A stretch of 64,000 bases of DNA from a bacterium (GCA_037129835.1 JBAXUE010000006.1:6157-70156); one strand, 5' to 3'. Shown: positions 25,934-56,200, numbered from the stretch's first letter. Made by a program: numbers and translations. The notes: a model not told the origin generated them from the sequence alone.

Positions 25934-26479
25934 TTATAATATAGGATAAGCCTTCGTCCCAACTGTTACCCCCAGCAGTGCCACAGCCTCCGGGTCATTG
26001 GTAATTAAAGCCTCAGTCTGTTCTCTGCCTTCGTGCATATCATGACGTGACACAAGCGCAATATTCATACCACTACTGTGGTAGATAAAAAATCTTTGAT
26101 GGTTATCCGTAAAAATGTCATCATTTTTGCTAAATTTAATATTGGGCGATAATCTAGGCCATTTTTCTGGCTCTCCGAAGATAATTATTGTATTTGCAAC
26201 CTGAGAAAGTTCAAATAGCTTTCTCTTCACTCTGTCCGAACAGCCCAAACCCTTTATATTTATATATATAGTCCCATTCTGTTCATTAGTAATTGCCACC
26301 TTCGTAAGCATCGCGTCCAGTGACTTCTCAAAATAATCATGTTCCCCAATAAATGTTACCGAAGATATTTTTTCAACCTTTATAACCTCCTGAGCTTCGG
26401 CAAAATCATATTTATCAAATTTAAGGGGTTTAATTGCCAGATACCGTACAGCTACTTCAAATAAATCAACCTTATCCAT
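25934..26479 (-). CDS. Hypothetical protein (181 aa), heads the TCS/ABC gene string
   Basis: Clean ORF with no recognisable motif. Confidence 0.4.
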   Translation of the reverse strand: MDKVDLFEVAVRYLAIKPLKFDKYDFAEAQEVIKVEKISSVTFIGEHDYFEKSLDAMLTKVAITNEQNGTIYINIKGLGCSDRVKRKLFELSQVANTIIIFGEPEKWPRLSPNIKFSKNDDIFTDNHQRFFIYHSSGMNIALVSRHDMHEGREQTEALITNDPEAVALLGVTVGTKAYPIL

Positions 26480-26537: not shown

Positions 26538-26566
26538 TTGACCAAATCTATCTTTTTTGATATAAT
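26538..26566 (+). promoter_or_regulatory. Sigma70-like promoter (TTGACC-17-TATAAT) ~145 nt upstream of tRNA-Asp
   Basis: Near-consensus -35 and -10 hexamers with a 17-nt spacer. Followed by a GC-rich leader. Confidence 0.5.
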
Positions 26567-26712: not shown

Positions 26713-26789
26713 GACCCGGTAGCTCAGCTGGTTAGAGCGCCGCCCTGTCACGGCGGAGGTCGCCGGTTCGATCCCGGTCCGGGTCGCCA
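26713..26789 (+). tRNA. tRNA-Asp (anticodon GTC)
   Basis: GACCCGG-TA-GCTC-AGCTGGTTA-GAGC-G-CCGCC-CTGTCAC-GGCGG-AGGTC-GCCGG-TTCGATC-CCGGT-CCGGGTC-G-CCA. Cloverleaf with a GGTTCGATCC T-arm. Confidence 0.88.
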
Positions 26790-28385
26790 AATATCACGGA
26801 GTTCGCTCATAGGGTCATATTCTGCCTCTATGTGGCTAAAATTGACTGGTTCGGAAATATCCTTTCCGATTTCAGTCATTTTTTTATTTTCCGAACTTTC
26901 ATTTGTTTGTTTTACCGCTCTTTGGAGCGTCTGCATAGCTATCGTATATTCAATTATGGGTTTGCCATTCTCTATTTTGATGCTCTCGCATATGTCCTTC
27001 AGAATCTTCTTTTGGACTTCTGGGACCTTTAGTTTGAACTTCTCCTGGGCTACTTCCGCTCTCTGGAATATCTTCACTCCGATTTGTTGCTTTTGCTCGG
27101 AGCTTTTGGACAATCCGTCTATCTCACTTAGAATATCGTCCTTCTGTTTGGTATATTGAGCGAACCGCTCTCTGTAATTCGCATCAGAGATTAACTCGTC
27201 CAATCTGTCCTCATAGAGCCTATCTAGTCTTTTCTCCATCCGCTGGTGGTTCGCCTGAAGTTCAGTGAGTTTATGCTCTTTGTATTCAGTATCTTCTGTG
27301 TGGCTCAACTTGAGCGACTTTACTATCCAATCGGCTATCCTCGGATTCTTTACTATCAACTCCCCGAACGATTCGGCTATTTCATCAAGGACCACCTCTT
27401 CCTTCATCCATATTCGCTCATCACACTTGGTATATTTGTAGTTACAGTGTCCATATATGTGGCCTTTGTGCTCTTCCCAGCTGATTACGCTTCCGCATTT
27501 ACCACATCGCATCATCCCCTTGAAGAGAAAGTTTCTCTTGGTGATATGAGGGACAGCCCTACCTGTTAGCTTCTCCTGGACTAGATTATATAGTTCCTCA
27601 CTGATAAGTGGTTCGTGTTTACCCTGATATACGACTCCATTCCAACGAAATTTGCCTGTGTAATACAGATTGTGGAGTATTTCCCAGGTTAGCCTTTTTT
27701 TTATCACATTCCCATATTTGCTTCTTAGGCCATCTTTCTCCATCTCTATTGCTAGAGACTCTGTAGAATACAATCCACTGGCATATAGTTTGAACATCTT
27801 TGTGATGTATGGAGCGAACTTTTCATCTGGAAGGTGAACTCTTCGGCCCCTGGGGCCTTCAGACCTATAGCCGAGTGGCGGTTGTGAGGGGTATTCGCCT
27901 TGGGATATCTTCTCTTTTTGACCCTTCTTGACCTCTTCAGAGAGATTTTTAATATAATTCTTCGCGAGGACTACATTTAAATCCCAATTCAGAACATCCT
28001 GGGATTTTGAGTTCTTATGGAGAATTATCCCGTTCTTTACTGAATGTATTTGCCTTTCTGGGTCTTCATTCAACCAGTCATCTATTAGCTGATACTCCTT
28101 AAAGTTCCTAGTAACTCTATCCACCTTTTCAAATATCAGGATATTTATCTTTTTCTTTTTGGCGAATTCTAGCATCTCTGCGAATTTCTTTCTAAGAACC
28201 TTCCCACTTGCTGACTCAGAAACCGCGAACATTTTCTTTACCCGAAAATTCTTTTTTTCTGCATACTCTCCCAATATCTTCTCTTGAGCGGGTAATGAAT
28301 AACCGCTTTCTTCTTGTTCCTTTGTTGATACTCTGGCATAGATTAATGCTTCCATATCTTCTCCTTTCCTTTTACCACTATTCAA
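26748..28385 (-). mobile_element. Large serine recombinase (integrase/transposase type); its 3' end overlaps the tRNA-Asp 3' end
   Basis: N-terminal resolvase domain with the catalytic Ser in YARVSTKEQ, a recombinase domain, a Cys-rich zinc ribbon (CGKCG…HCNYKYTKC), and a coiled-coil. The likely start is the internal MEALIY… (~28355). The last 14 codons read through the tRNA-Asp acceptor and T-arm. Confidence 0.82.
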
Positions 28386-28569
28386 TTGTCAAAATACAAA
28401 GAGGGGCATTCCTGCTGGACATAGTTTCAGGAAGAAACTAAACAGGTTTGCCCCTCAAAGCAAATTTCTTCCTGTAATTAACTATGTCCACCTATATTTT
28501 AACATATTTGACCTATATTTACTTAGTTGACGAATAACGAAATCTAACTATATAAACTAATTAATATAA

Positions 28570-28875
28570 CTAATTCTTACTGTATCTAACTAAAGATAAA
28601 TATTCGGCCAGAATTATTTTTTCCAGTTTTTTCCAAAGGGCTCTATCCATCCAGAACAGTGTGCAGTATTTTTTTCTTGCGTGATTATAATACTGAGGGG
28701 GGCCCACCCAGCGGATTATCTCTCCAGTTATCTTGTCGGTCTTGCTATAAATACGAAAACCCTTTATTTTAAGACCTAGATAGTCAAGGGTCACTAGAGC
28801 AACGATATTATTCTCTGGTGACTCTTTTCTTTTGATATCAAACTGGAAGCTATCAAGGTTCAATTTATCTGTCAT
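28570..28875 (-). CDS. Hypothetical protein (island cargo)
   Basis: 101-aa ORF that overlaps the next gene by 11 nt. Confidence 0.35.
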   Translation of the reverse strand: MTDKLNLDSFQFDIKRKESPENNIVALVTLDYLGLKIKGFRIYSKTDKITGEIIRWVGPPQYYNHARKKYCTLFWMDRALWKKLEKIILAEYLSLVRYSKN

Positions 28876-29137
28876 CCCAGCTCCCTTCTTCCAAAAATTG
28901 GATTAATGATTTTTCAGTCCAAGCCTTCAATGCTTGTTTTGCTTCTTCGGTTGTCGTATAAGTCCCAGAGTTATTGATTCCACGTCCATAGGTCACCTTC
29001 AGCGTTACTTCTGACACGTTATCTCGCACGAGATTCGCATAAACTCTCTTTCTTTTTGTTGTCGCGATAGTTTGCCTTGTCCCGTCTTTATTCAGAATCT
29101 TTAGTTGAATTTTGGGCACGATGTTTTTTAGCTTCAT
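28865..29137 (-). CDS. Hypothetical protein (island cargo)
   Basis: 90-aa ORF with coupled overlaps to both neighbours. Confidence 0.35.
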   Translation of the reverse strand: MKLKNIVPKIQLKILNKDGTRQTIATTKRKRVYANLVRDNVSEVTLKVTYGRGINNSGTYTTTEEAKQALKAWTEKSLIQFLEEGSWDDR

Positions 29138-29300
29138 TTGAGTTCACCTCCTCTCCGTAAAGTAGATTTTCAAAGAGGTCGGTTAACTGATTAGCCATAA
29201 GAAAGGCTTGTTCTTCCGTTAGGGAGAGACCATAATCTTCTAGAACTATTTGGCGAAGTTCTACGACTAAATCTTTAGATAAAAATTGACCTCTTGTCAT
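29088..29300 (-). CDS. Hypothetical small protein (island cargo)
   Basis: 70-aa ORF. Confidence 0.3.
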   Translation of the reverse strand: MTRGQFLSKDLVVELRQIVLEDYGLSLTEEQAFLMANQLTDLFENLLYGEEVNSNEAKKHRAQNSTKDSE

Positions 29301-29348
29301 AAGGCCAATGGTAGATTAATAGAGCAGAGAGCTCTTGGACATTAAAAA

Positions 29349-30128
29349 CTAGCTTATCTTGTCTGGGATAATCCTCTCATACCTTTTTATGGTTTTACCC
29401 ACCAAATCTATGTCTAGTGAATATTTATTATATTTATTCACTATTTGCTTATTTGTGAGCCCCCTTAAATGGTCTTGATATATCTCAAAGTGAAGCTCTG
29501 GACTTAGCAAGTAACTCTTTCTACCTGGTTGCTGGGGCTTTCCCTTCAAATATTCTTTTACTCCTGGCCATACCTTTCTGATGTCTTCAGGCGTTACATT
29601 TTTATGAATTTTAAGATAGTAGTAATCTGCTTCATCATTTCTAGTCTCTATCTGTATGAACACGCGGGCCTTTATTTCATCTGACGTAACATATTGCCAT
29701 AAATAACCGATTTCCTCACCACTAAGACTGTATTTCCTACCTAGCTCACCAGCTAGACCAGCCGTCTTCTTAACTGTTCCAGCAGCCTCCTCTAGTTTGT
29801 TAAATAGACCTGGGTATTCTTTTTTTCTGTTCTCCAGAGTCCTGTCATCCAGTTCGGTAGCAGTCTTTAAAAAATTGAGCAAGTAGTTAAAGTTGTTTCT
29901 ATCTTCTTTAGAGGTTAGGCCAACCTTTTTGCGTATTTCCTTAATGTCTTTTAGTAGTTCGGGGTTACTGTTTATCCTGTATATAAAATCTTTCGCAATA
30001 TTGTCCAGCGCTTTATTATCACTCAGTAAGATTAGTGACTCCTTATCGCTCTCGTTATAGGTGATCCCTTCTAACCCCTTTTTAGATTTGAAGTATCCTA
30101 TTCCTTCTTTGAATTCCTTCAGGTCCAT
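29349..30128 (-). CDS. Hypothetical protein (island cargo)
   Basis: 259-aa ORF with a charged, helical character. Confidence 0.4.
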   Translation of the reverse strand: MDLKEFKEGIGYFKSKKGLEGITYNESDKESLILLSDNKALDNIAKDFIYRINSNPELLKDIKEIRKKVGLTSKEDRNNFNYLLNFLKTATELDDRTLENRKKEYPGLFNKLEEAAGTVKKTAGLAGELGRKYSLSGEEIGYLWQYVTSDEIKARVFIQIETRNDEADYYYLKIHKNVTPEDIRKVWPGVKEYLKGKPQQPGRKSYLLSPELHFEIYQDHLRGLTNKQIVNKYNKYSLDIDLVGKTIKRYERIIPDKIS

Positions 30129-30394
30129 ACGTCTCCTATTCTCCCCTATATATTACCCTATTTCTGACCCCTCTTATAGATACTCTATAGGACTATGCTA
30201 GTTGTATGCTGATATCAGTGCCTACTCCTTCCGTAAGTTACGCACGACTTGCCAACTCGGCGATGTGGTGGTTTATGGGACTATACAGGGCTATGCCAAC
30301 TACCTTCCTTCCGATAGAGCACTTACCCCACATATTTCCATAACAGCTTGGCATCGGGCTGTCGGTGTGCAATAATCCCCTTCCGTGCATGGCA

Positions 30395-30412
30395 AAAAAT
30401 TGGTATAATGTA
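30395..30412 (+). promoter_or_regulatory. Extended -10 promoter (TGGTATAAT) plus RBS for the methyltransferase operon
   Basis: aaTTGGTATAATgtagaaaagAGGGGcaATG: a TGnTATAAT element ~20 nt upstream of a GA-rich RBS and the ATG at 30426. Confidence 0.5.
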
Positions 30413-30425
30413 GAAAAGAGGGGCA

Positions 30426-32258
30426 ATGAAAAAAACACTGGCAAAAAATTTTACACCTGTAAAAGCGGCGCATCATACGCCTCCTTATAGAATCCATAGA
30501 TACTTTGCAAGAAGGCCTTGGAATCTCTTTAGAGAACTAATTGAGAGCCTAACCAACGAGGGGCAAACGGTTCTCGATCCATTTTGTGGCGGGGGAGTAA
30601 CTGTTTACGAGGGAGTCACATCTAATAGAAAGGTGATCGCATCCGATTTAAACCCACTTTCTGTTTTTATAGTAAAAAATATGTTCCACAAAAAAATGAC
30701 TGAATTAATACGTATGGATTATGAGCGTATAATATCTAAACTTGAGCCAATTGTAGCTGAAACATTCGCAACAAATTGCCCCCACTGTGGGACAAAGGAT
30801 ATGGCCGGTTGGTATGAGCTAGTTCATACCTGCAATTGTGATCTTTGCGGTTCTGAAATAATCCTGAGCGATGAAAATAAGATTCGTAATGGTTTGTATA
30901 AATGTCAAAATTCTAAATGCACCTCACCGGGCGTGATTGTTGCGCGACAACCAAGACAAAAACCGATATATCTAAGTCTCAGTGGGCGATGCACAACTTG
31001 TAAGAAGGCGTATTCAATCCCTATGGATGAAAAGCTCGCCGCAAAGAATCTTAGGGGCATAAAAAAACTTCAGACAATCGTTAAAGATCAGGGTATAAAA
31101 GTTCTTTCTGAAACCATACCGCTGGATTGGGATAGGCAAAAGGAGGACCTCCTTGAAGCAAAAGGGTTCATGGGATTTGAAGACTTGTTTACTAAAAAGA
31201 ATCTGCTCATAAATAGTATCTTGCTCGATTTTATTAAGAATAATCACAGCGATAAGGAGTCATACGAAATATTGCGCTTCATTTTTAGCGACTCATTAAG
31301 AGATACAAATATTATGTCTTTCACTAATAAAAATTGGCAAAATGGTGCACCAACTACATGGGCAAAGCATGCTTACTGGATTCCTCCACAATTTTGCGAA
31401 GTCAACCCATTGAAGGCGATTCAGAGATCCTTTGGATCAATGAAGAAAACGATAGACTTTAACTCTGAATCTGGCTATGAGATGAAGTTAGCATCCCAAT
31501 ACTCTGATTTAAAAAAGAGTAGCAACCTGCTTATCAAGAGAGGTGTTGTAAGAGACCTTAATCTCCCAGCAGGTTCGATAGATATAGTAATAACAGACCC
31601 ACCCTATGGAAGCAATGTCCAGTATCTAGAACTTTCACACTTCTGGCATATGTGGAACCAAGACCTATATGAGGGAGGTTCATTAGATTTCTCAGAAGAA
31701 GCCATTGTGAATAGAAAGCAAAATTTTCTCAAAGCTAAGGGATATAAAGATTATGAAGATAACCTATTCTCTGTGTTTTCAGAGTGTCAAAGAGTTCTTA
31801 AAAAAGATGGTTTAATGGTAATGACTTTCAATAATAAGGATTTAAGAGCCTGGATAGCTTTACTGATTAGTATCTTTAGATCCGGCTTTCACTTTGAAGC
31901 AGATGGGATCACTTTCCAGGATGGCGTTGCCAACTATAAGCAAACTGCCCATACAAAAGCCAAGGGCTCCCCATATGGCGATTTTGTTTACCAGTTTGTT
32001 AATAAGAGTCATCCGAATAAGGACAATATAACTGCAAAAGGAAGAGAAGAACTCGTGATATATATTAGGGAACGAATTAATAATGCAGTGGCAAAATATC
32101 AAGCAGCGTCAGTAGATAGAAATGTTATTTTGATAGAGCTTTTTAACGAGATTGTGCCAGAGATAGAGGTTTTTGTTAAATTATCTAGCCAGGATGAGGT
32201 AGTGAATGATCTTTACGAAGCATTTTGTAGTGGTCACCTGGAGTTGCTATATGCCTGA
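30426..32258 (+). CDS. DNA methyltransferase (N6-adenine/N4-cytosine type, alpha-like motif order X-I…TRD…IV) with an internal Cys-rich zinc-ribbon segment
   Basis: Motif X HRYFARRPWNLFRELIE, motif I VLDPFCGGGVT, a Cys-rich insert (CPHCG…CNCDLCG…C..C), and motif IV ITDPPYGSN. Confidence 0.85.
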   Translation: MKKTLAKNFTPVKAAHHTPPYRIHRYFARRPWNLFRELIESLTNEGQTVLDPFCGGGVTVYEGVTSNRKVIASDLNPLSVFIVKNMFHKKMTELIRMDYERIISKLEPIVAETFATNCPHCGTKDMAGWYELVHTCNCDLCGSEIILSDENKIRNGLYKCQNSKCTSPGVIVARQPRQKPIYLSLSGRCTTCKKAYSIPMDEKLAAKNLRGIKKLQTIVKDQGIKVLSETIPLDWDRQKEDLLEAKGFMGFEDLFTKKNLLINSILLDFIKNNHSDKESYEILRFIFSDSLRDTNIMSFTNKNWQNGAPTTWAKHAYWIPPQFCEVNPLKAIQRSFGSMKKTIDFNSESGYEMKLASQYSDLKKSSNLLIKRGVVRDLNLPAGSIDIVITDPPYGSNVQYLELSHFWHMWNQDLYEGGSLDFSEEAIVNRKQNFLKAKGYKDYEDNLFSVFSECQRVLKKDGLMVMTFNNKDLRAWIALLISIFRSGFHFEADGITFQDGVANYKQTAHTKAKGSPYGDFVYQFVNKSHPNKDNITAKGREELVIYIRERINNAVAKYQAASVDRNVILIELFNEIVPEIEVFVKLSSQDEVVNDLYEAFCSGHLELLYA

Positions 32259-33594
32259 AGCCAAGCCTATACGAAAGAGTGAAGAGAAAAAGGTCTTATT
32301 GCCAGAGGAAAATAAGACCCTTTTTTGCGAATACGAATCTGTGATTAAGAGCCTAGAAGGTAAATTCAACCCCGTTTGGGACGATGAGTTCACTGATCTG
32401 GTCAACTTCAAAAAAAATAAGAGTCTCCCAATACATCGATGGTTTGACTATAAAGAAGGTTACTCTGAAGATCTTGTTAATAAACTACTTGATTATGCGA
32501 AAGTAAAAAAAGGGGCATTGGTTTTAGATCCTTTTGTAGGTGTTGGGACCACACTGGTGGTGGCGCAAAGCCGAGGATTAAAGTCAATCGGTCTTGATAT
32601 TAATCCGGTTGCTTCATTTGCCTCTAAAGTTAAAACCGCAGTTTATTCTGACAAAGAAATAGTTGAGTTAAAGAAAACACTTAATAATATTAATAACCAC
32701 CTAATAAGGACAAAAAACATTCCAAAGTTTAGTAGGTTGGAATCAATTTTTACCAAAAAACAACTCGAGCAGATACTATCGATTAAGGGCTTCTATGAGA
32801 GTATTCCTAGTGAAAAGATTGCAGGCATATTTAAACTGGCCTACCTATCAATTATTGAAGATGTCTCAAATAGGGTCAAGGACGGTAATGGTATTAAAAT
32901 CTCTAAAACTAAAACTCAGATTGAGGATGTTATTGGCAGGTATACCTTAAAAGTAAAGAGTATGATTGAGGATATTGAGGGCAATAATTGCAAAGGAGAA
33001 TCAATTGTCATCCATGGCTCTATTCTGGAAGACTCTGTTTTTAAGAAAATTAGTAACGAAAAGGTTAGCACAACGATATTCTCACCGCCTTATGCCAACT
33101 GTTTTGACTATTGTGAAGTATACAAAATGGAGATTTGGTTAGGCGATTTCGTAAAAGAGTATTCAGATTTTACTAAATACAGAGAGAAGGCGATAAGATC
33201 ACATGTAAATTCTAAATTTTCTCATGATTTGATGCGAACTAATCAGGAAATTAGAGTGATCTCAGAATTAATCGGAACATATAACCTGTGGAATAAAAAA
33301 ATACCAATGATGTTGCGTGGATACTTTGATGACATGGAAGAAACTCTTAGCAGAATTTCCTCCATGAGCCTCCCGGGAGCAACCTGTTCTATCGTTGTCG
33401 CAAACTCAGTTTATAAGGGTGTTGTAGTCCCTACAGATCTACTGTTGGCAGACATAGCTGAACATCATGGTTTTAAAGTAGATAAAATTATTGTAGCAAG
33501 ACGAATAAGATCTTCTTCTCAGCAGATGACAGAAGTGGGTAAAAATAGTAAGCTTATGAGAGAAAGCATTATTATACTGAGGAAAAATGATTAA
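32251..33594 (+). CDS. Second DNA methyltransferase of the same family (SPPY motif IV)
   Basis: Motif X IHRWFDYKEGYSEDLV, motif I VLDPFVGVGTT, motif IV FSPPYANCFDYCE. The ATG at 32251 overlaps the upstream stop (ATGCCTGA), so the two genes are translationally coupled. The six-frame ORF starts at 32206. Confidence 0.85.
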   Translation: MPEAKPIRKSEEKKVLLPEENKTLFCEYESVIKSLEGKFNPVWDDEFTDLVNFKKNKSLPIHRWFDYKEGYSEDLVNKLLDYAKVKKGALVLDPFVGVGTTLVVAQSRGLKSIGLDINPVASFASKVKTAVYSDKEIVELKKTLNNINNHLIRTKNIPKFSRLESIFTKKQLEQILSIKGFYESIPSEKIAGIFKLAYLSIIEDVSNRVKDGNGIKISKTKTQIEDVIGRYTLKVKSMIEDIEGNNCKGESIVIHGSILEDSVFKKISNEKVSTTIFSPPYANCFDYCEVYKMEIWLGDFVKEYSDFTKYREKAIRSHVNSKFSHDLMRTNQEIRVISELIGTYNLWNKKIPMMLRGYFDDMEETLSRISSMSLPGATCSIVVANSVYKGVVVPTDLLLADIAEHHGFKVDKIIVARRIRSSSQQMTEVGKNSKLMRESIIILRKND

Positions 33595-36328
33595 GCTAGA
33601 CGCGATTTTTTCAAATAAAATCTCTGAATGGAAAGAGCTTGAAGCCTTCCTAGAAAAAATTGAGGACAATGTTACGAAGGGCGAAATCTTTGAGCAATTT
33701 GTCTATTTATATTTGTATCTTAAAAAGGATTATTACCAAATAAAAGATCTTTACAGAAGAAAAGACATCCCGTCAGACTTAGTGGCCAAACTTAAGCTTG
33801 AGAAGAGCGACTACGGCGTAGACGGAGCGTTTGTAATGGAAGACAATTCGATAGTAGCCTATCAGGTCAAATTTAGATCCAACAGGGTTCCGCCCACCAT
33901 CTCCGAGCTCGCGACCTTTTGGACAGAGGCTGAATACGCTGATCTGAGGTATGTAATAGCAAACTGCGTTAACCTGCCAAGGCCGGCTAATAAAAAAATT
34001 GAGAGCTATCAAATTCTCGTGGATATTTTTGACGACTTAGAAGACAAATTTTGGGATGACCTTCACTCACTTGTTATAGGATCAAAGATAGAAAAAATTG
34101 AGTTGGTCCCAGATGCTCATCAAAAAAGAATAATATCAAATACAGTTAAGGGTTTTAGGGAGAACGACCGTGGCAAAATAATTGCAGCTTGTGGGACGGG
34201 AAAAACCCTTACCTCTCTTTGGATAACCGAAGAACTAGAGACAAAGAAGATTCTCTTTTTAGCCCCTAGCCTGGGTCTTATAAAACAGACTCTTGAATCT
34301 TGGACAAGTAATACCAAGAACAAGTTCAACTACATTTGTGTTTGTAGTGACCAAACTGTGGTCTCTGACCAGGAGATTGATACGAGTGATATAGCCATCA
34401 GCGAAGTTGACTTCCCTGTCACTACAGACAAAGACAATATACTAACATTCCTATCACAGCCATATGACAAAAAAATTATATTTTCCACATATAACTCTTC
34501 AAGTATAATCGCCGATGCAATAGAGGGTTCAGACTTCGAATTTGATCTTGTTATCTTTGATGAGGCCCATAGAACCGCCGGTCAAGGTGATTCTGAGATG
34601 TTTTCTTTAGCGCTACACAATGAGCGAATTAACTCTGCAAAAAGGCTCTTTATGACGGCCACCGAAAGACTTGTTCGCCCTTGGATATTAGAGAAGGCAA
34701 AACAGGCTGATCGAACCATATTTTCAATGGATGATGAAAATACATACGGCCCTATTTTTGACAGGTATACATTCGGGGAAGCTATCAAGGACGGCGTAAT
34801 AAGTGACTACAAAATTATTCTTACCGCTATCGATACAACCGAAGTTCTAGAGTGGATTGAAAATAATCAACTCTTAGTTACGGAAGAAAAAGGAACTGAG
34901 GTAACCCTAGCAGCGGACAATATTTTTAAACAGATGGTCCTGGCGAAAGCCATAAAAGAGTTCTCGTTGGCAAAGATTATTACTTTTCACTCTTCCATCA
35001 AGAGGGCCCGATCCTTTGCATTTGGGTCTAATAATGAATCTGTCAGTCTAAAGGATATTCTTGATTTAGCTTCCGTCTCTTTTGAGACTGAAAAAGTTTT
35101 TATTGATAGCGTTGACGGTAGTATGCCGGCTGGTATGAGGAAGCAAAAATTAAGAGATTTTGAAAACGCTGAATTCTCAATAATTACAAATTCTAAATGT
35201 CTTACAGAGGGAATTGATGTTCCAGTGATTGATAGTGTGTATTTTGTTGACCCAAAAAACTCGCTTATTGATATTGTCCAAGCTTGTGGCAGAGCTCTAA
35301 GAAAGCCCAGAAACAAGAAGATAGAGAAAACGGCCTATTTTATTGTTCCGCTACTAATTAATCACGAAGACGGTCCCGAAAATAAATATGAGACCCTAAT
35401 GAACTTAATACAGGCGCTTAAGGGACAGGATGAAAGACTTGCTGATTGGATCGACAAGCTGAACATGAGTGTGGCCAGAGGTGGAAAGGGTCCTGAGGTT
35501 GATCCTCCAATAGGTATTTCCCTACCAGAGAAGGTAGATTTAAAGAAGTTCATGCATGATATCCATTTACAGATTGCAGAATCTAGCTATGGCCCTCGCC
35601 AGAGTATTCTTAAAAAAGGGCACAGCAGGAGAAGTGATGCGGATAGCTTTTTTAAGCCGCTAGGAGACATGACATATGAGAACTTCAAGACCAATGTGGC
35701 AGATGTCACTTTGGCTAAATTCAACTCATTGGAAGAGGTAAGGTCATCTAACGAAATCTATATTAACCATAACAACATATCTCATACTAAAAGACTTGGG
35801 CTTATTGAAGAGGCCGACTCCCGAAAGTTTAAATTGACACCCCTAGGTGTTGATTACAAGGAAGGGAAGGCACGATTTGAGGAATTGTTTAGGAGTGCAA
35901 TGTTAAATTATAATTCCTATTCTGCCGAGAATCTTAATCCGTATAAAGCCTTCCTAAACATCCTGGTAGAAACAGGAAAGTTAAACTATATAGAATTTTT
36001 GTATGCTGTTTACCGCATGCCTGATCTCGGTCCTGATTCATACGCTGAAACCTTTGAAATTATTGAAAGTTTAAGGTCCGACTATCCAAATTTAAATCTG
36101 TTATCTAATAGCAACAGAGAGAAAATCTTATCAGAATTAAATGAAAGGTATTCTCTAAACTATAGTTACGTTGAAGTCTGGGGAAGCACCACAGCAAAAA
36201 ATAAATATATGTATTTCCGAAACCACTTGGCCGTATTTGATCAACTCGAGTCAAACAATCAAGAAATATATGTTATTGATAACATGAAACAGGAGCTTAT
36301 AGATTTACTAGAGATTAACTTTTCATGA
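33587..36328 (+). CDS. Mrr-cat (PD-(D/E)xK-like) restriction-nuclease domain fused to an SF2 DEAH helicase, with a ~300-aa C-terminal domain of unknown function
   Basis: N-terminal DYGVDGAFVMEDNSIVAYQVKF is Mrr-cat-like (D…QxK). Walker A AACGTGKT, DEAH box LVIFDEAHR, and helicase motif VI VQACGRALRKPR. The start overlaps the MTase-2 stop (ATGATTAA). Confidence 0.8.
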   Translation: MIKLDAIFSNKISEWKELEAFLEKIEDNVTKGEIFEQFVYLYLYLKKDYYQIKDLYRRKDIPSDLVAKLKLEKSDYGVDGAFVMEDNSIVAYQVKFRSNRVPPTISELATFWTEAEYADLRYVIANCVNLPRPANKKIESYQILVDIFDDLEDKFWDDLHSLVIGSKIEKIELVPDAHQKRIISNTVKGFRENDRGKIIAACGTGKTLTSLWITEELETKKILFLAPSLGLIKQTLESWTSNTKNKFNYICVCSDQTVVSDQEIDTSDIAISEVDFPVTTDKDNILTFLSQPYDKKIIFSTYNSSSIIADAIEGSDFEFDLVIFDEAHRTAGQGDSEMFSLALHNERINSAKRLFMTATERLVRPWILEKAKQADRTIFSMDDENTYGPIFDRYTFGEAIKDGVISDYKIILTAIDTTEVLEWIENNQLLVTEEKGTEVTLAADNIFKQMVLAKAIKEFSLAKIITFHSSIKRARSFAFGSNNESVSLKDILDLASVSFETEKVFIDSVDGSMPAGMRKQKLRDFENAEFSIITNSKCLTEGIDVPVIDSVYFVDPKNSLIDIVQACGRALRKPRNKKIEKTAYFIVPLLINHEDGPENKYETLMNLIQALKGQDERLADWIDKLNMSVARGGKGPEVDPPIGISLPEKVDLKKFMHDIHLQIAESSYGPRQSILKKGHSRRSDADSFFKPLGDMTYENFKTNVADVTLAKFNSLEEVRSSNEIYINHNNISHTKRLGLIEEADSRKFKLTPLGVDYKEGKARFEELFRSAMLNYNSYSAENLNPYKAFLNILVETGKLNYIEFLYAVYRMPDLGPDSYAETFEIIESLRSDYPNLNLLSNSNREKILSELNERYSLNYSYVEVWGSTTAKNKYMYFRNHLAVFDQLESNNQEIYVIDNMKQELIDLLEINFS

Positions 36329-36414
36329 TGAATAATGAAAAGTAGGCGTGGGGTGTATACTTCTCTAAAAATATTTTGCGAATAAGACAGTTGGATTCTA
36401 TGTGACACGCGAGG

Positions 36415-36810
36415 CTATTTTGCCTCCCCCTGGGTGGGGTGTGGGTATCCGTCCTCTATGCCGTTTATGATTGATTTCATCTTCTTACCCACTATTTTCT
36501 CTATATTTTCATAGTAGACGTTCTTGTCGTGTTCATAGTCATACTCTTCATCTATAAATGTCTTTGCTTCCAGTCGCTTCGCCTTGGGGACGTAAGCTAG
36601 CAATTTCTCTGCATTCTCTTTATCTACCCTTATCACTTCTCTGAGTGTCTTGACACTTACCCAGATGAGGCTAAATACATCTCGTTCAGCAATCTTGGCA
36701 ACTGTTTCACCAAACTTCTTGCTTATACTCTTAGTCCCCGCCTGGTAGCCAACCGCCAGTGCTAGTATCGGTAGACCAAAAAACAATAGAAAGTCTCTAT
36801 ACATTTTCAC
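36415..36810 (-). CDS. Hypothetical membrane-anchored protein
   Basis: 131 aa with an N-terminal TM helix. Confidence 0.4.
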   Translation of the reverse strand: MKMYRDFLLFFGLPILALAVGYQAGTKSISKKFGETVAKIAERDVFSLIWVSVKTLREVIRVDKENAEKLLAYVPKAKRLEAKTFIDEEYDYEHDKNVYYENIEKIVGKKMKSIINGIEDGYPHPTQGEAK

Positions 36811-36834
36811 TCCCTTCTTATTATTTAGTAGTTC

Positions 36835-37485
36835 TTATAACCACTTTTCGCAACCTGTTGGGACAAGGTCCCTACCTGCGATCAGAAGCATCTCCATCAT
36901 ATCGTGTTGCTGTTTCGCCCCTGCTAGTGACTGGTTCATCAAGGCAGTTCTCTGTGCTATCGACATCCCGGAATAAGCAGGATTATTTGGATCCATTGCC
37001 GCATTGCGAATACTGATAATTTGATTTTGGTAGCTGTTTTCTTCTGCTACGACTTGTGGCTGATATTTATTATAACCTGTCTGCATTAGCCCGAGACAAA
37101 ATTGCTTCATTTCGGCTGCATAGGCTGCATTTGCGTCGACTGTTGGTGTGCTGGGTGCAGCTGGCGCCTGAGTATTTACCCCTGAGGCTGGTTTATAAGT
37201 TGTGTCATAAGGAGTTGTTTCTGTGGGAGTCGTGGCTTGGGGCGTCTCTGCTTTAACTTCTTCAGTCTTTGGAGTTTCTACGGTTCCTGTTTTCTTTACC
37301 TCGCCTTTTACCTCACTTTGACCAGTGCCTTTATCTGTGGGCTTATGACTGTCTTGATAGTATTTATATCCAAAGACCCCAGTTGCAGCAAAAACGACTA
37401 TCGTTAGTGCTATCGCAAATGGGAGTAGCTTCTTTGCTTTCTTTTTATCAAGTCCCTGCCAAATCTTCTTAGGATTTAGTTTCAT
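36835..37485 (-). CDS. Hypothetical secreted protein with a Thr/Pro-rich linker
   Basis: N-terminal TM helix, a T/P-rich low-complexity stretch, and a C-terminal helical domain. Confidence 0.45.
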   Translation of the reverse strand: MKLNPKKIWQGLDKKKAKKLLPFAIALTIVVFAATGVFGYKYYQDSHKPTDKGTGQSEVKGEVKKTGTVETPKTEEVKAETPQATTPTETTPYDTTYKPASGVNTQAPAAPSTPTVDANAAYAAEMKQFCLGLMQTGYNKYQPQVVAEENSYQNQIISIRNAAMDPNNPAYSGMSIAQRTALMNQSLAGAKQQHDMMEMLLIAGRDLVPTGCEKWL

Positions 37486-37558
37486 AAAACCCTTTCGTTA
37501 GGCTGTTTATACCACAAATAGACCAAAATATCAATCCCTTTTATTCTTAATTGTATAA

Positions 37559-37942
37559 TTATTTGTTTGACCGTGTTACGACAGTTTTCAAATCCTTATC
37601 GCAGGCATAGCGCAGCGAAATTTCTGATTCTTTAAGAAACTCTTCCTTGCTATATGTCGTGAATATATTATCTATTTTATTCATAGCTTGCTTGTGGGCC
37701 TTTTTGTCTTTTATATCTTCATTCACTATACCTTCTATGCAGGCTCGGACATATTGAATCCTTTTCTCATATTTATCGGAGGAGTAACTGACAGCCTGGA
37801 GGATGCGATTCTTTGCATCAGCATTTTTGGCTATAGCTATCTTTGTTTTAAGTTTCTGGTCAAATCTCCACCTAGCAATCATATAGCCCGCAACTAACCC
37901 TATCGCCAAGGCGATTGATAAAAACGCAATCTCGGTATACAT
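37559..37942 (-). CDS. Hypothetical membrane-anchored protein
   Basis: 127 aa with an N-terminal TM helix. Confidence 0.4.
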   Translation of the reverse strand: MYTEIAFLSIALAIGLVAGYMIARWRFDQKLKTKIAIAKNADAKNRILQAVSYSSDKYEKRIQYVRACIEGIVNEDIKDKKAHKQAMNKIDNIFTTYSKEEFLKESEISLRYACDKDLKTVVTRSNK

Positions 37943-37969
37943 AAGGCTCCTTTCTCTGTGGGCTAAATT

Positions 37970-38248
37970 TTAGTCCCACATCCCTTCATCTTCGTATTTG
38001 TTACTCTTAAAGCATTTAGGACAGGTCTTATAATCCCACCTCACTAGCTTGTGGTCTCCGCAATCAGGACAGATGGGGCAATCGCCAGGCCAACCATCAA
38101 TCTTCGCATCACCTCTTACTATGACGATTTCATTCTTTTTATTGCAGTAATACGGGGTTTGATAGGATAGGCTTATTCCTGACACCCCGCTGAAGAAACC
38201 ATTCCTGTATCCACAATCACCGCACTTATAAGAGATTATCGAGCCCAT
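37970..38248 (-). CDS. Zinc-ribbon protein (hypothetical)
   Basis: CGDCGY…CPICPDCG…CPKC gives four CxxC-type pairs. Confidence 0.45.
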   Translation of the reverse strand: MGSIISYKCGDCGYRNGFFSGVSGISLSYQTPYYCNKKNEIVIVRGDAKIDGWPGDCPICPDCGDHKLVRWDYKTCPKCFKSNKYEDEGMWD

Positions 38249-38570
38249 TTATTGCCTCTCTATAAACGCTATTACTCCTAACAAGACAAGGAAGAAGACA
38301 GCCATTAGGATAAACGTTTTTAATTCCATTTCATTAGCCTATAAAGTTGATAAAACCAGTTTTATTAGCGTAGAACCAGAATAGCATTACTGCGATAGCG
38401 AGAACTGTTGCACCAATACTTGCCCACAAATTTTTCTTCCAGGGTAGAAAATACATAAAAGCTATTAGTGCGATTACTTCTATCAATTGTCTGGCTCCTT
38501 TTGCCCAATCCTAGCATTGCTTTTTGGGTCTGTTAAATATCTTTGAAAATATTCTCATTTCATCAAACGC

Positions 38571-39044
38571 CTATACTATTTGTCCGTAGAATATCACCCA
38601 GCCGACTAATGAACCCAGCCACAATGCCATTACACCGATTCTATATAATTTTCTACCGTTTTTCAGTCCCATTGCTTCAAACAATTCATCTATTGATTCA
38701 TTCGCAGACTTATCTTTTCCGTAGTTTGTATGATTTGTATCTTTCGGTAGCGCATTTATACCAGCGATTAACGAAATTGCTAATGGGACTAAGGGGTCTT
38801 TATGAAATACACTTCCGAGATATGGGAGTGAAAGTCCCAGGAAAAACATAATCGGTATCCATATTTTGAATTGCTTCTTATCCCAAACAAAATAGTTTGA
38901 GGTAAGAGAAATAATGCTTGAGAGAATAAAGACCGCAACTAATACAGCTACTAATCCTATGAAGAATTCCACAAAGGACCCCTTTCTTTTGCCCAATCCT
39001 AGCATAAAATAGCCCAAAATGCAATGTTTAGTGAGTTTCAGCAA
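38571..39044 (-). CDS. Hypothetical multi-TM membrane protein
   Basis: 157 aa with four hydrophobic helices. Confidence 0.45.
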   Translation of the reverse strand: MLKLTKHCILGYFMLGLGKRKGSFVEFFIGLVAVLVAVFILSSIISLTSNYFVWDKKQFKIWIPIMFFLGLSLPYLGSVFHKDPLVPLAISLIAGINALPKDTNHTNYGKDKSANESIDELFEAMGLKNGRKLYRIGVMALWLGSLVGWVIFYGQIV

Positions 39045-39070
39045 ACATAGCGAAGCTAGATAATTAAGCT

Positions 39071-39331
39071 ATGGCAAATGAGTTCGGAGAATTATCTAAA
39101 GAAGAGAAACAGGCCGACAAAAGAGCCTTCGGCAAGAAGATAGGTATTCTTATTAAGGATGCCCGAATCGCCAAGGGAATGACTCAAGATGAAGTAGCTG
39201 ATAAGGCTGGTTTATACAGAACCTATGTAGGATTTATTGAAAAAGGTGCCTACTCACCTAGTGTATATACTGTTCAGAAAATTGCTAAGGCGTTAGATAC
39301 AAAGCTAAGTTCTCTGCTGAAAGACCTCTAG
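39071..39331 (+). CDS. XRE-family helix-turn-helix transcriptional regulator
   Basis: GMTQDEVADKAGLYRTYVGFIEKGAYSPSVYTVQKIAKAL is the classic Cro/C1-type HTH. Confidence 0.8.
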   Translation: MANEFGELSKEEKQADKRAFGKKIGILIKDARIAKGMTQDEVADKAGLYRTYVGFIEKGAYSPSVYTVQKIAKALDTKLSSLLKDL

Positions 39332-39500
39332 GATAATCAAAAAGGGACCTTAAATAGTCCCTTTTTGTTATTATCCTTTCTTTTATAGCTCACTAGCTAG
39401 ACTGAATTGTGTTATATCTTTAGAGCTTAGGCTTCGGACCTGATGATAGTATGCTCGCCAAAGTTTGCTATTTGGAACTAAGGTTCAAGTAGCCAGGAAT

Positions 39501-39556
39501 TTGTTCGAGTATTCTAAGTCAATTAAAAGAAGCATCGTGCTAGATGCTTCTTTTAA
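39501..39556. repeat. Intergenic repeat copy A with a 12-bp-stem hairpin (AAAAGAAGCATC…GATGCTTCTTTT)
   Basis: Shares ~45 of 55 positions with copy B at 43858..43912. The hairpin lies between convergent genes and is a bidirectional terminator candidate. Confidence 0.55.
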
Positions 39557-39579
39557 TTTTTAGCCAAGTATTTAATAAT

Positions 39580-53213: not shown

Positions 53214-56200
53214 TCATTTCCCAATAAACCTATCACCGAGCTTCCCAAAGAACTGATTTAGTTTCCCAGTCCAAGCGAAAGTTTCTTCTAATGATTTAAG
53301 AATCAGTTGAAGGATTGATTTCTCTTTAGTTGGTGTTACAAAGGTATAATCTTGAGATTCAGTAATATTAGTTCTTTTGTCTTTAGAAATCATCTTATAA
53401 TGATAAGACGAAGCAGGTTTGAGACCTTTAATTATAACGGTATGTGAGTTATTAAGTGACGTGTCTTCATTTGACTCATTTGAATAATCTCCCCCAAGGA
53501 TCCCTTCACCGTATTTCACTTGTGTAGACGCAGGCTTATTGGTCTGCCAAGAAACTATAATAGAAGACGTAGTGTCGTTTTCTCCCATCGGTAGGATGTC
53601 TACTTTGGCATTGGTAATCTTCGGTCCTTCGGTATCTAAGGGCGTTCTTACTATCTTGTCAGTATCTGCGACTTCATTACCAGTTTCGTCTTTGGCAAGG
53701 ATTTGATAGTGATACTCTTGGTTATCTAGAAGGTTTTCAATCTTAACTTGATGGACTTTAGATACTCCGGTAGTCCCTTTCTTCTCGCCATAATTGGTAG
53801 TGGTACCCCAGTTGATGATTGTTTCAGTATCGACGTTGGTTTCCCAAGCTACTGTAACAGAGTAAGGAGTGATATCTTTCACTGACATGTTAGATATCTT
53901 TGGTTTTAAAACAGCGGTAAATGAGTATTCTTGAGAAGTATACTCTACCTCGTTAGCATCTTTAACTCTAACTCTATAGTAGTATTTGGTACCGGGTATT
54001 AGACCTTCGATCACCACTACATGAGAGCCGACTAGGTCATTATTACCTGCAGCGCCGTCATAGACTCCAGATGTAGTGGAGTAATCTACCCATGAGGTGG
54101 TAGGACTCTCTGTCTGCCAGACTATTTGTGCTGTTGTGGCTGTAATATTACGTTCTGCGACATTTGATGATGCTGGGGCTAGAGTGAACTGAGCTGAATC
54201 AAATGATTTGGTCTTGAATGTTGCAAATTCACCGGCTGGGTATTCGGCAAGATAGCCATCTTCTGAAATAGATTTGATCTTATAGGTATAGGTTCTAGCC
54301 GATCTTAATCCCTTGATCACCACTTTATGGTTTCTTGGACTTGAAGAAAGTGCAGCAGGTTCGACACCAGCTGTTCCACCTTGAGCATCGTCGCCTGGTT
54401 GTTTTTGCAATTGATACTCCACAAAAGCAGATGAGGCGTCAAGATTTGTGGCCCAAGCTATAGTAGTTGTAGAAGTGGTGGATGATACTGCGCCTGCTGT
54501 GATATTGAAGCCGGTGGTGGTGAGAGAAGGAAGCTGTGCTCCTTCTGCTGATACTGGGTTACCCAATGCGTTACCCGATGCAATAATATAATCATATGTA
54601 GTATTTGGACTAAGTCCAAAGAGCTCTACTGTGTGGTTTTGAACCATCCCCAGTCCTCTGCTATTATCACCTACACCTATTTGCTTATATGGATCACCGC
54701 TTCCAGATTTTCTAAAAGATACCATAGAGTCGCAATCTTGATCCGTTGTCCAAGTTACAGTGGCCGTTGCTACACCAACACTAGTTAAAATTGCTTTAAG
54801 CCCATTATGTTGATCTAGAATACTTGGTTTCGCTATGTATGGGTTAAGAGAAACTGATACAATCTTGCCGTCACTGCCAATATCGGGTTTCGATTCATTG
54901 AAATAGTTCGGATTGATGATGGTGTTTTGGTTTGGTGCGTTGTACTTATAAGTATCTCCAGAATCATCAGAAGCGGTAACGTGATAATAAAAGAACTTAT
55001 CTGACTCTGCCTGAGACCTAGGAATAAGATCCATATAATAGTTATTTGTTAGGGCTATCTCTTTGTCTGCATCATAAAGAGGGTTTGGATACTGGGTAGT
55101 ACAAGAAGGCAATAAAATAGTTGTTGTACCATTCTGACATATTTGTTCCCAAAGACTTCCGTCATTGATCGAGCGATATATCTTATACTCCTTAAAATCG
55201 TTAACCCCATTTCTAAGTGGAGTGGCTATCCTGGCCCAAGTGATGATATTTCTTCTGAAGTTGGTACCATCATCATGGATATCTTTAACCTTAACTAGCG
55301 AAGGAAGAGCCGGAGCAGTAGCATCTGGGGTGGTATCCCAACCAAGGTGAAGGGTACCAGGAGCAACAACAGAAAGACCAGAAAAAAGATTAGATTGAGA
55401 CGGTTGATTCGGTACAACAGTATTATCCTGGGCCCAAACACGATAATAGTAAGTAGTGGAATCCGTCAGGTTTATGTCAGTTATGGTGTGCGGAACTGTT
55501 CTGTCGTCTGGTGTCGGGGTAATATTTATAGTCTGTATTTTTGTAGCAGTATTTACTCTGACCCAACAATCTGATACTTTTTCTCCTGGGTTACAATTCC
55601 CGGCGATATTGGTGGTTGTCCTGTATACTTCGTATTTAACGATTTTATTAGAATATGAACTTGAACCAGTAAATGTTACTTCGGCTGTATGTCCGACAGC
55701 ATTATTTGTATTTGGGTCTCCCTTTGTGGTCACAACATCGATGTTTGCGGGGACACTAGGAACTTTTGAAGAATAAGTTACAACACTTGAAGTTTCAGAT
55801 AAGTCTGAAAGTACTGATTCTTTGGGAACACTATCATAGGCAGAAACGCGATAATAGTAATTAGTAGTATCGGCTAAACCTTCATCATTAAAGCTTGTAG
55901 CTGTAGTGGTTTTGATTGGAGCAATATCCCATGGACCGAGATCCGAAGTAGACCGATAGACATGATAGGTAATAGTCCCAGGTACGATATCTTCACTTCT
56001 GGCTTTGTAATCATTCGATGCACCCCAAGAAACATTAATCATCTGACTCTCGTTGGAATTATCTAGCCCTTGTGCGTTTGCAACCACATTGTTTGGCACA
56101 GTTGGTGCCGTAACATCTGGAGTGCCTGGAGTAGTTCGGGCAAAGTTCTGGTCTGGGGAAACAAAATTTGAATCACCAGATGCAGGTACGAGTGAAGTCT

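Follow-up and report, generated by a model that had tools for sequence, protein, structure and literature searches.

A probable integrative element at the 3' terminus of a tRNA-Asp gene, carrying a large serine recombinase gene that reads into the tRNA

Introduction

Why should the gene for a serine recombinase end inside a tRNA gene, and what is the DNA that lies behind it? The question is raised by a 64,000-nt stretch of a bacterial genome assembly (GCA_037129835.1, JBAXUE010000006.1:6157-70156; hereafter the window, with positions counted from its first letter), in which a gene for a large serine recombinase (LSR) runs into tRNA-Asp near 26.7 kb. A preliminary description of the window had marked 26713-39578 as an island-like segment anchored at this tRNA, without placing its far boundary. 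In the published record, a large survey of LSRs reports protein-coding targets only and never mentions tRNA (Durrant et al.; PMC10083194), tyrosine integrases were found to target RNA loci preferentially in a 2026 provirus survey (PMC13626063), and an LSR is present in about 3% of the island elements of Prochlorococcus (10.1101/2020.12.28.424599). The reading proposed here, to which we assign a probability of roughly 0.8, is that window positions 26792-39462 (12,671 bp, with one copy of the core) are an integrative element inserted by its own serine recombinase at the 3' terminus of tRNA-Asp(GTC).

Results

The integrase gene and its overlap with tRNA-Asp

ARAGORN predicts three tRNAs in the window, one of them tRNA-Asp(GTC), on which the recombinase (integrase, int) gene converges. 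The features at the two ends of the segment, including the attachment (att) sites proposed below, are:

26713-26789, + strand: host tRNA-Asp(GTC), intact, CCA encoded; integration target and proposed B arm of attL (ARAGORN; Rfam RF00005, 68 bits)
26748-28355, - strand: large serine recombinase (integrase), 535 aa when integrated (Pfam, invariant residues, AlphaFold2, Foldseek)
26748-26783, - strand: host-derived end of the integrase open reading frame (ORF), 11 codons (PGPGSNRRPPP) and TGA, antisense of tRNA positions 36-71; integrated state only
26784-26791: attL common core TCGCCAAA, the last 6 nt of the tRNA including CCA, plus AA; identical 8-mer at 39455-39462
26850-26858, + strand: T-loop-like DNA motif GGTTCGGAA in the integrase tail (codons SEP), 85 nt from the real T-loop
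39405-39454: putative P arm of attP (element side of attR), located from the position of the core
39455-39462: attR common core TCGCCAAA, the repeated 8-mer, in the gap between the XRE gene and CYTH
39463-39558, + strand: displaced native tRNA-Asp trailer (B' arm), containing a small hairpin (GGAAC..GTTC) and, at 39521-39558, a perfect inverted repeat of 16 bp

The integrase ORF is listed as 26748..28385 (-), with an alternative TTG start at 28385 that would give 545 aa; the most likely start is the ATG at 28355, giving 535 aa, and exactly this product is recorded in public gene calls on three contigs, including an ENA contig whose reverse complement is the window. Its C-terminus reads ...DIWRPGPGSNRRPPP. 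The ORF and the tRNA have 42 nt in common, made up of 13 sense codons (WRPGPGSNRRPPP) and a TGA stop that is the reverse complement of T35-C36-A37 in the anticodon loop. This overlap takes in the last two anticodon bases, A37, the 3' strand of the anticodon stem, the variable loop, the T arm, the 3' strand of the acceptor stem, and CCA; codons W523 and R524 fall inside the attL core. That the gene ends inside tRNA-Asp, as the preliminary description had it, is borne out by ARAGORN, Rfam and the ORF coordinates. It was also right that the last codons are antisense to the tRNA, but not in limiting them to the T arm and acceptor stem: 13 codons and the TGA reach back into the anticodon loop.

By its domains, conserved residues and predicted fold, the recombinase at tRNA-Asp is a true LSR. 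Within the 545-aa ORF, Pfam places a Resolvase domain (PF00239, 1.1e-18) at residues 13-164 and a Recombinase domain (PF07508, 1e-12) at residues 191-276, corresponding to 3-154 and 181-266 in the 535-aa numbering used from here on; a zinc ribbon (PF13408, Zn_ribbon_recom, 4.7e-5) scores 24.1 bits, slightly below the 25.3 cut-off. R8, S10, D79, R80 and R83 are invariant across an alignment of 40 family members, as are C284, C287, C304 and C311. The AlphaFold2 model (mean predicted local distance difference test score, pLDDT, 79.5) has a catalytic domain with a long helix, a recombinase domain, a zinc ribbon, and two long, coiled-coil-like helices (338-385 and 391-421), with pLDDT <50 at residues 490-535. 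Its best Foldseek matches in the PDB are full-length complexes of serine integrases with att sites (E 1e-18 to 1e-10), among them 9dxh (1.8e-18), Bxb1 (9iu2), PhiC31 (9rah) and the LI integrase (4kis). It is the sole recombinase that Pfam identifies in the element; none of the tyrosine family was found.

Location of the far boundary

At the far end, the preliminary description had expected a partial repeat of 20-45 nt of the tRNA and had seen no clear one by eye. There is indeed no long repeat in the window: 25-mer and 16-mer patterns allowing up to 3 mismatches and a repeat finder detected no copy of the tRNA 3' half besides the other two tRNAs, nor did local alignment of the full tRNA-Asp and of both its halves. 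What recurs is an 8-mer containing 6 nt of the tRNA, and its second copy, at 39455-39462, is where the boundary left undefined before is now placed, together with a displaced tRNA trailer and a syntenic, integrase-free relative.

An 8-bp repeat alone is weak evidence, and it is two independent lines of sequence comparison that make the case for this boundary strong. One of them is a pair of loci (L097/L098), reached by a homolog search with a left-flank protein, that match window 21.1-26.5 kb collinearly on the left and have unrelated genes, but no recombinase, after tRNA-Asp. When their TCGCCA plus 20-nt trailer was used as the query in an ungapped scan of both window strands (~128,000 positions), the single best match was at 39455, with 20 of 26 positions identical; the next best were 17 (twice) and 16 (in 13 places). 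The other line is a pattern composed of the positions common to the window and L097/L098 trailers (GGTCGCCAAAGTNNGCNANNTGGAAC), which occurs in eight contigs of the Joint Genome Institute (JGI) metagenomes, in each of which the trailer immediately follows a complete tRNA-Asp. Four of them (L105, L106, L109, L111) have the trailer AAGTTTGCTATTTGGAACTAAG, identical to window 39461-39482, including nine positions that the pattern had left free. Because of this homology to L097/L098 and identity in four metagenome contigs, the sequence to the right of 39462 (AAGTTTGCTATTTGGAAC) is best read as a tRNA-Asp trailer, parted from its tRNA by 12,671 bp. The inverted repeat at 39521-39558 is probably the original terminator, common to tRNA-Asp and the convergent CYTH gene.

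The tRNA-Asp genes of L104-L111 differ in sequence and their contigs have no protein similarity to the window, yet the trailer is conserved. A hairpin, GGAAC-N3-5-GTTCC, is a conserved feature of these tRNA-Asp trailers some 15-30 nt past CCA, before the real terminator (39474-39487 in the window); it could be a processing signal or a B' half-site. Two other candidates for an empty site were set aside. A relative of CYTH with 81% identity, on an 848-kb contig, has no tRNA-Asp beside it and no local synteny, and the left-flank homologs in L102/L103 (59-60% identity) belong to a type IV pilus operon without a tRNA. Base composition, suggested earlier as a check, proved uninformative: GC is 0.36-0.43 inside the segment vs 0.35-0.42 in the flanks, which does not set it apart, and a flip in GC skew at 31-36 kb mirrors gene orientation only.

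Proposed geometry of integration

In the arrangement proposed, recombination would take place within the 8-bp core, presumably catalyzed by this integrase, and the crossover dinucleotide would lie inside that core; the element may still be mobile. AttL would consist of the tRNA (B arm), the core at 26784-26791 and the int 3' end (P' arm), and attR of element DNA (P arm), the core at 39455-39462 and the trailer (B' arm). Since recombination would lie within a core at the tRNA terminus, tRNA-Asp would stay intact and wholly host-encoded, with its natural trailer and terminator shifted by 12.7 kb, to 39463 onward. A repeat of 8 bp with only 6 nt of tRNA fits the common core of a serine integrase, and fits a tRNA that is not rebuilt from element DNA.

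The integrase gene, at the tRNA-proximal end and reading outward, has no stop of its own before the core, so that the integrated ORF runs 11 codons into the tRNA, antisense to it, as far as the anticodon-loop TGA. The recombinase would thus read into the tRNA because the attP core lies within the 3' end of its ORF. Once the element is excised as a circle, this ORF would instead read on across its opposite end and acquire a different 23-residue tail; with the element ends joined in silico it is 547 aa long and ends in ...DIWRAYYHQVRSLSSKDITQFSLASEL before the stop. The predicted attP junction is GATAGTATGCTCGCCAAATATCACGGAG and the predicted attB junction CCGGTCCGGGTCGCCAAAGTTTGCTATTTGG.

A Patescibacteria integrase clade at tRNA ends

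A homolog search with the integrase returned 1,976 proteins below 1e-20, and most of the 120 matches listed end in tRNA-antisense peptides (..IWRPGPGSNRRPPP, ..WLPREDSNLQP, ..LLRGEDSNLQPTG). Among GTDB species-representative genomes there are at least 547 relatives, of which 80 loci were fetched, nearly all from metagenome-assembled genomes (MAGs) of Patescibacteria; 76 have a readable gene end. The end of the integrase gene overlaps a tRNA in 63 of these 76. In 45 it is an intact tRNA on the opposite strand (Asn-GTT 29, Gln 8, Asp 4, and Arg, Leu, Ser and Val 1 each), and in the other 18, missed by ARAGORN, the tRNA 3' half is preceded by a group I intron core. Rfam RF00028 (group I intron) was confirmed in 10 of 10 loci tested, at 55-100 bits, with the intron in the anticodon loop (L016:11622-11829, L026:11621-11817, L029:11583-11788, L044, L047, L055, L061, L065, L070 and L072). 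In 63 of 67 loci the integrase ORF meets the T-loop of the tRNA in one and the same codon phase.

At the family level, chance falls far short of explaining the overlap. The integrase is a member of a very large clade of serine integrases in Patescibacteria (Candidate Phyla Radiation, CPR) that are found almost always at tRNA ends, in one fixed register. The earlier remark that such an overlap is unusual for serine recombinases is correct for the group overall but not within this clade, where it is the rule. The clade appears to be undescribed: no description of it was found in the literature, where an earlier mention is possible. The integrase has no relatives in the viral contig collection.

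Other members show where the elements end. Elements of 8-11 kb are delimited in L023, L077 and L041 by a 16-22-nt repeat of the tRNA 3' end, each with a single mismatch in the T-stem strand of the distal copy that would unpair the stem, in agreement with a host-derived tRNA whose crossover lies close to the 3' end. Four more loci (L025, L033, L062, L067) keep merely 6-21 nt of the tRNA end beside int.

Several further observations were made on these loci. Two related elements have a LOOT RNA (Rfam RF03000, ~78 bits) in the cargo region (L016:8226-8336, L026:6896-7006); the window has none. One clade member, 45% identical, is in an archaeal record (L007; NZ_RCOS01000062.1, Candidatus Methanodesulfokora washburnensis) and has a gene end without a T-arm, which could reflect transfer, a secondary site or mis-binning. 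Short-read contigs break inside the tRNA beside the integrase in L003 (end at 26742), L091 (end at 26758) and L084, and because such breaks recur, assemblies and MAGs will often separate these elements from the host flank. The L003 and L091 ends were considered as branch points of att variants and rejected; they bracket a shared tRNA core of 43 nt (26729-26771), consistent with the presence of another tRNA-Asp allele in the sample.

Constraints on the 3' end of the integrase gene

The last 135 nt of the integrase genes, anchored at the T-loop, align without gaps across integrases 36-67% identical to that of the window. In the 105-nt tail on the element side there are 0 stops in the int frame in 63 of 63 loci, vs 99 and 176 in the other two frames; because of this and the lack of indels, the open frame up to the core would appear to be under selection. 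At the place of the window's SEP codons, the related genes have a "FEP" motif, mostly 83 nt from the real T-loop; its reading on the tRNA strand (GGTTCGAA) is a T-loop look-alike. Its Glu codon is GAA in 55 of 55 cases (66% gene-wide) and its Phe codon TTC in 37 of 44 (35% gene-wide), and the codon after Glu starts with C in 55 of 63 loci though the residue varies (P/L/H/Q). Between this motif and the tRNA, a tRNA-sense hairpin with a T-run occurs in 35 of 51 loci (50 relatives and the window copy, each sequence tested against its shuffles), vs 1.0 expected from the shuffles. It is probably a replacement terminator for a tRNA whose own terminator was displaced. From the gapless alignment of the tails RNAalifold derived no consensus structure, as the register of the hairpins differs between sequences.

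A more speculative reading, which we consider unlikely, is that these 135 nt, with their open and indel-free frame, tRNA-sense terminator and T-loop mimic, form a composite att and regulatory module, so far undescribed in serine integrases, that acts as an integration-state switch for Int expression or activity. Since the ORF contains the attP core and faces a strongly transcribed, convergent tRNA gene, integration would swap the C-terminal tail of Int and set the int 3' end antisense to the tRNA and its read-through; the module might also include a putative accessory recombinase-binding site outside the canonical 50-bp attP.

A near-consensus sigma-70-like promoter (TTGACC-17-TATAAT with TG, 11/12) is located at 26538-26566, ~147 nt upstream of tRNA-Asp. 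Should the tRNA be transcribed from it, read-through would run antisense to the integrase, because the window element is without the terminator hairpin usual in the clade.

Cargo and neighboring genes

The genes between the integrase and the far boundary are:

28570-29300, - strand: three small genes (101, 90 and 70 aa) adjoining the integrase, candidate accessory or directionality factors; 73%, 67% and 77% identity to L084 by tblastn
29349-30128, - strand: 259-aa protein, no family match (Pfam, PADLOC, PHROG)
30426-32258, + strand: DNA methyltransferase, 610 aa (Pfam N6_N4_Mtase 1.5e-20; PADLOC MTase_II 8.7e-40)
32206-33594, + strand: second DNA methyltransferase, 462-aa ORF, called as 447 aa (Pfam N6_N4_Mtase 8.3e-12; PADLOC MTase_II 1.5e-80)
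33587-36328, + strand: 913-aa ResIII/SF2 helicase protein (Pfam ResIII 6.4e-23, Helicase_C 9e-13; PADLOC REase_MTase_IIG 6.1e-99, residues 18-628)
36415-39044, - strand: block of small proteins (131, 216, 127, 92 and 157 aa), including predicted membrane and Cys-rich proteins; no family matches
39071-39367, + strand: XRE-family helix-turn-helix (HTH) regulator, 86 aa (Pfam HTH_3 6.2e-15), and a terminator-like hairpin at 39338-39367; last gene of the element

The content given for 28.5-39.3 kb by the preliminary description was accurate (small proteins, two N6_N4 methyltransferases, a ResIII/helicase protein and an XRE HTH regulator, followed by CYTH and ileS), and its suggestion of an integrated mobile or defense island at tRNA-Asp is supported by the serine recombinase at the tRNA-proximal end and the restriction-modification (R-M) cargo. 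The two N6_N4_Mtase proteins and the ResIII/Helicase_C protein lie in one co-directional block. In the 913-aa protein, which by its matches resembles the nuclease-helicase half of Type ISP/IIG restriction enzymes, the REase_MTase_IIG profile aligns from residue 18, and no nuclease Pfam domain is reported at residues 1-170. The predicted cargo is a split R-M-like system of two methyltransferases and a Type ISP-like helicase-nuclease, with an XRE regulator and small proteins. The 101-, 90- and 70-aa genes have no Pfam or PHROG match, and Pfam and PHROGs detect no phage structural, packaging or replication families in the element, which is a small defense island and not a prophage.

The closest related element, L084, has an integrase 67% identical to that of the window and shares the three small neighboring genes at 67-77% identity, but its cargo in the same position is a different defense set (MTase, ResIII, GmrSD_N). 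In 12 related loci the integrase has XRE homologs upstream of it. Window positions 38498-38517 and 38986-39005, 488 nt apart, carry the same 20 nt, CTTTTGCCCAATCCTAGCAT, as an exact direct repeat, owing to which two small minus-strand ORFs share their first six residues (MLGLGK); the repeat resembles a local duplication within the element.

Outside the element, the 181-aa protein encoded in the left flank (25934-26479) is probably a type IV pilus assembly component, because its homolog in the distant relatives L102/L103 (7315-10546) is the last gene of a PilM-PilN-PilO operon. On the other side, a single ORF of 3,105 aa occupies 53214-62531 (-), and its 61-62 kb bin has a GC of 0.53 vs ~0.39 elsewhere.

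Discussion

Several observations weigh against the proposed insertion at tRNA-Asp. The repeat is merely 8 bp long, with a chance of occurring in that intergenic gap that we estimate at ~0.1. To the right of tRNA-Asp the genes of L097/L098 are not collinear with the window, and the precise absence of the element there rests on ~26 nt of trailer homology. The dyad symmetry to be expected of LSR att sites scores 11-13 of 28 in the reconstructed attP and attB, with two candidate centers ~4 bp apart; in scans that covered the sites of the window, L023, L077 and L041 it is not above chance. No recombination directionality factor is recognizable by sequence among the element genes, and the window copy is without the terminator-like hairpin found in 35 of 51 loci, which could mean decay. 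The comparison with related genomes that had been proposed did yield the integrase-free syntenic relative L097/L098 but no empty site in the same species and no excised circle; contigs with the exact flanking proteins all carry the insert or stop before it. Exact matches to the predicted attP junction in viral contigs and to the predicted attB junction in JGI metagenomes were also not found. L095 and L096, in which gene calls suggested a deletion variant, are both 100% identical to the window.

Some of these points would be equally at home with a fixed, immobile remnant of the same insertion, whose integrase and att sites are inert or whose recombinase has been recruited to another chromosomal role. 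The integrated form alone is seen in all samples carrying the element, the hairpin typical of the clade has been lost, and a directionality factor is not recognizable; yet the integrase ORF is intact with all its catalytic and zinc-binding residues, the two cores are identical, a 67%-identical integrase (L084) carries different cargo elsewhere, and the locus is empty in a relative. These last two observations point to recent mobility of the element lineage, and we regard a remnant as doubtful, if worth keeping in view. Far less can be said for a prophage or phage satellite: a serine integrase at one end and a repressor-like XRE gene at the other would suit one, but the segment is merely 12.7 kb, its small proteins have no capsid, terminase, portal, tail or replication matches in Pfam or PHROGs, and the viral contig collection holds no relative, so that this explanation is very improbable.

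The geometry of a classical tRNA island, with a crossover inside the tRNA (anticodon or T loop), a 3' half supplied by the element and the displaced original half deleted or eroded, would account for an ORF overlap that covers the entire tRNA 3' half, and a distant relative (L075) does have a distal copy that includes the anticodon arm. Here it can scarcely be credited: there is no tRNA fragment anywhere in the window, the trailer at the far end is joined directly to TCGCCAAA and not to a longer fragment, the two ends agree over no more than the terminal 6 nt of the tRNA and 2 further nt, and the mismatches in the distal copies of L023, L077 and L041 break the T-stem. A different kind of question is whether reading into the tRNA has any meaning at the protein level. 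The functional integrase may end near residue 490, the rest being run-on with a tail shaped by DNA and RNA features such as the att core and the tRNA terminator; this is compatible with insertion at the tRNA terminus and bears only on the reading into the tRNA. The low pLDDT of residues 490-535, the excess of terminator-like hairpins in the tail, codon choice in the FEP motif that is fixed at the nucleotide level, and tRNA-encoded residues that follow whichever tRNA is targeted all speak for it, while the int frame, free of stops in 63 of 63 loci, and the indel-free tail indicate that the open frame itself is under selection. We consider the chances evenly divided.

The accepted split, in which tyrosine integrases go to tRNA genes and serine integrases to protein-coding genes, may need revision, as a clade of at least 547 members in species-representative genomes breaks it. 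The Patescibacteria mobilome is poorly known, and many islands there are probably unmapped. The tRNA-derived C-termini (..W-x-P-x-x-D-S-N..) of thousands of recombinases in databases mark an integration junction and not a protein motif. Serine integrases are the preferred tools for insertion of large DNA, and in our assessment a natural attB at a conserved tRNA 3' end could offer ready-made, gene-preserving landing sites, including in CPR bacteria, for which tools are few.

A tRNA target for a serine recombinase is not entirely without precedent, since the temperate Paracoccus phage vB_PamS_Pami6, which encodes one, has been assigned a predicted site in a tRNA-Met gene (PMC6536676). That is a single alphaproteobacterial phage, set beside the window here by its description only, for which no clade-wide pattern, overlap of ORF and tRNA, or fixed register is reported. 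Among better known systems, the phage-type LSRs (Bxb1, PhiC31, TP901-1, Listeria A118/LI) are like the window integrase in their three domains, coiled coil, catalytic Ser/Arg pocket and four-Cys zinc ribbon, and the predicted fold of the window integrase matches solved att complexes of this type. Their elements also have the int gene at one end beside an att site and a short common core, 8 bp in the window, without long direct repeats. The window element differs in that its target is a tRNA 3' terminus and not a protein-coding gene or intergenic site, in that its ORF crosses the attP core, so that the last codons change with the integration state, and in having Patescibacteria hosts and the cargo of a small defense island rather than a phage genome.

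With the tRNA and tmRNA islands of tyrosine integrases (Islander-type, P4-like) it shares an int gene that adjoins and converges with a tRNA, a functional tRNA, and accessory or defense cargo. Those islands duplicate a fragment that restores the tRNA and use an unrelated recombinase, whereas the window element repeats 6 nt of the tRNA, which is not rebuilt; in the Islander sense, the far end has no tDNA fragment and there is no tyrosine integrase. Archaeal integrases of the SSV1 type are tyrosine recombinases with attP inside the int ORF and a tRNA target, and integration splits their gene into two large parts. The window integrase is like them in having attP within its coding sequence, a tRNA target and an ORF altered by integration, but only about the last 12 codons would be swapped, leaving the enzyme domains intact. 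The Ccr proteins of the staphylococcal cassette chromosome SCCmec are LSRs of a non-phage island at the 3' end of rlmH/orfX, a target gene that stays functional, with ccr inside the cassette. As in SCCmec, the window island carries an LSR and sits at the very 3' end of a housekeeping gene that is conserved and kept functional; the SCCmec target is however protein-coding, and the ccr genes do not overlap it. Set among these systems, the element at tRNA-Asp is ordinary in kind, a small defense island that a serine integrase moves, and unusual in its configuration, with its target at a tRNA end and its integrase ORF running through the att core.

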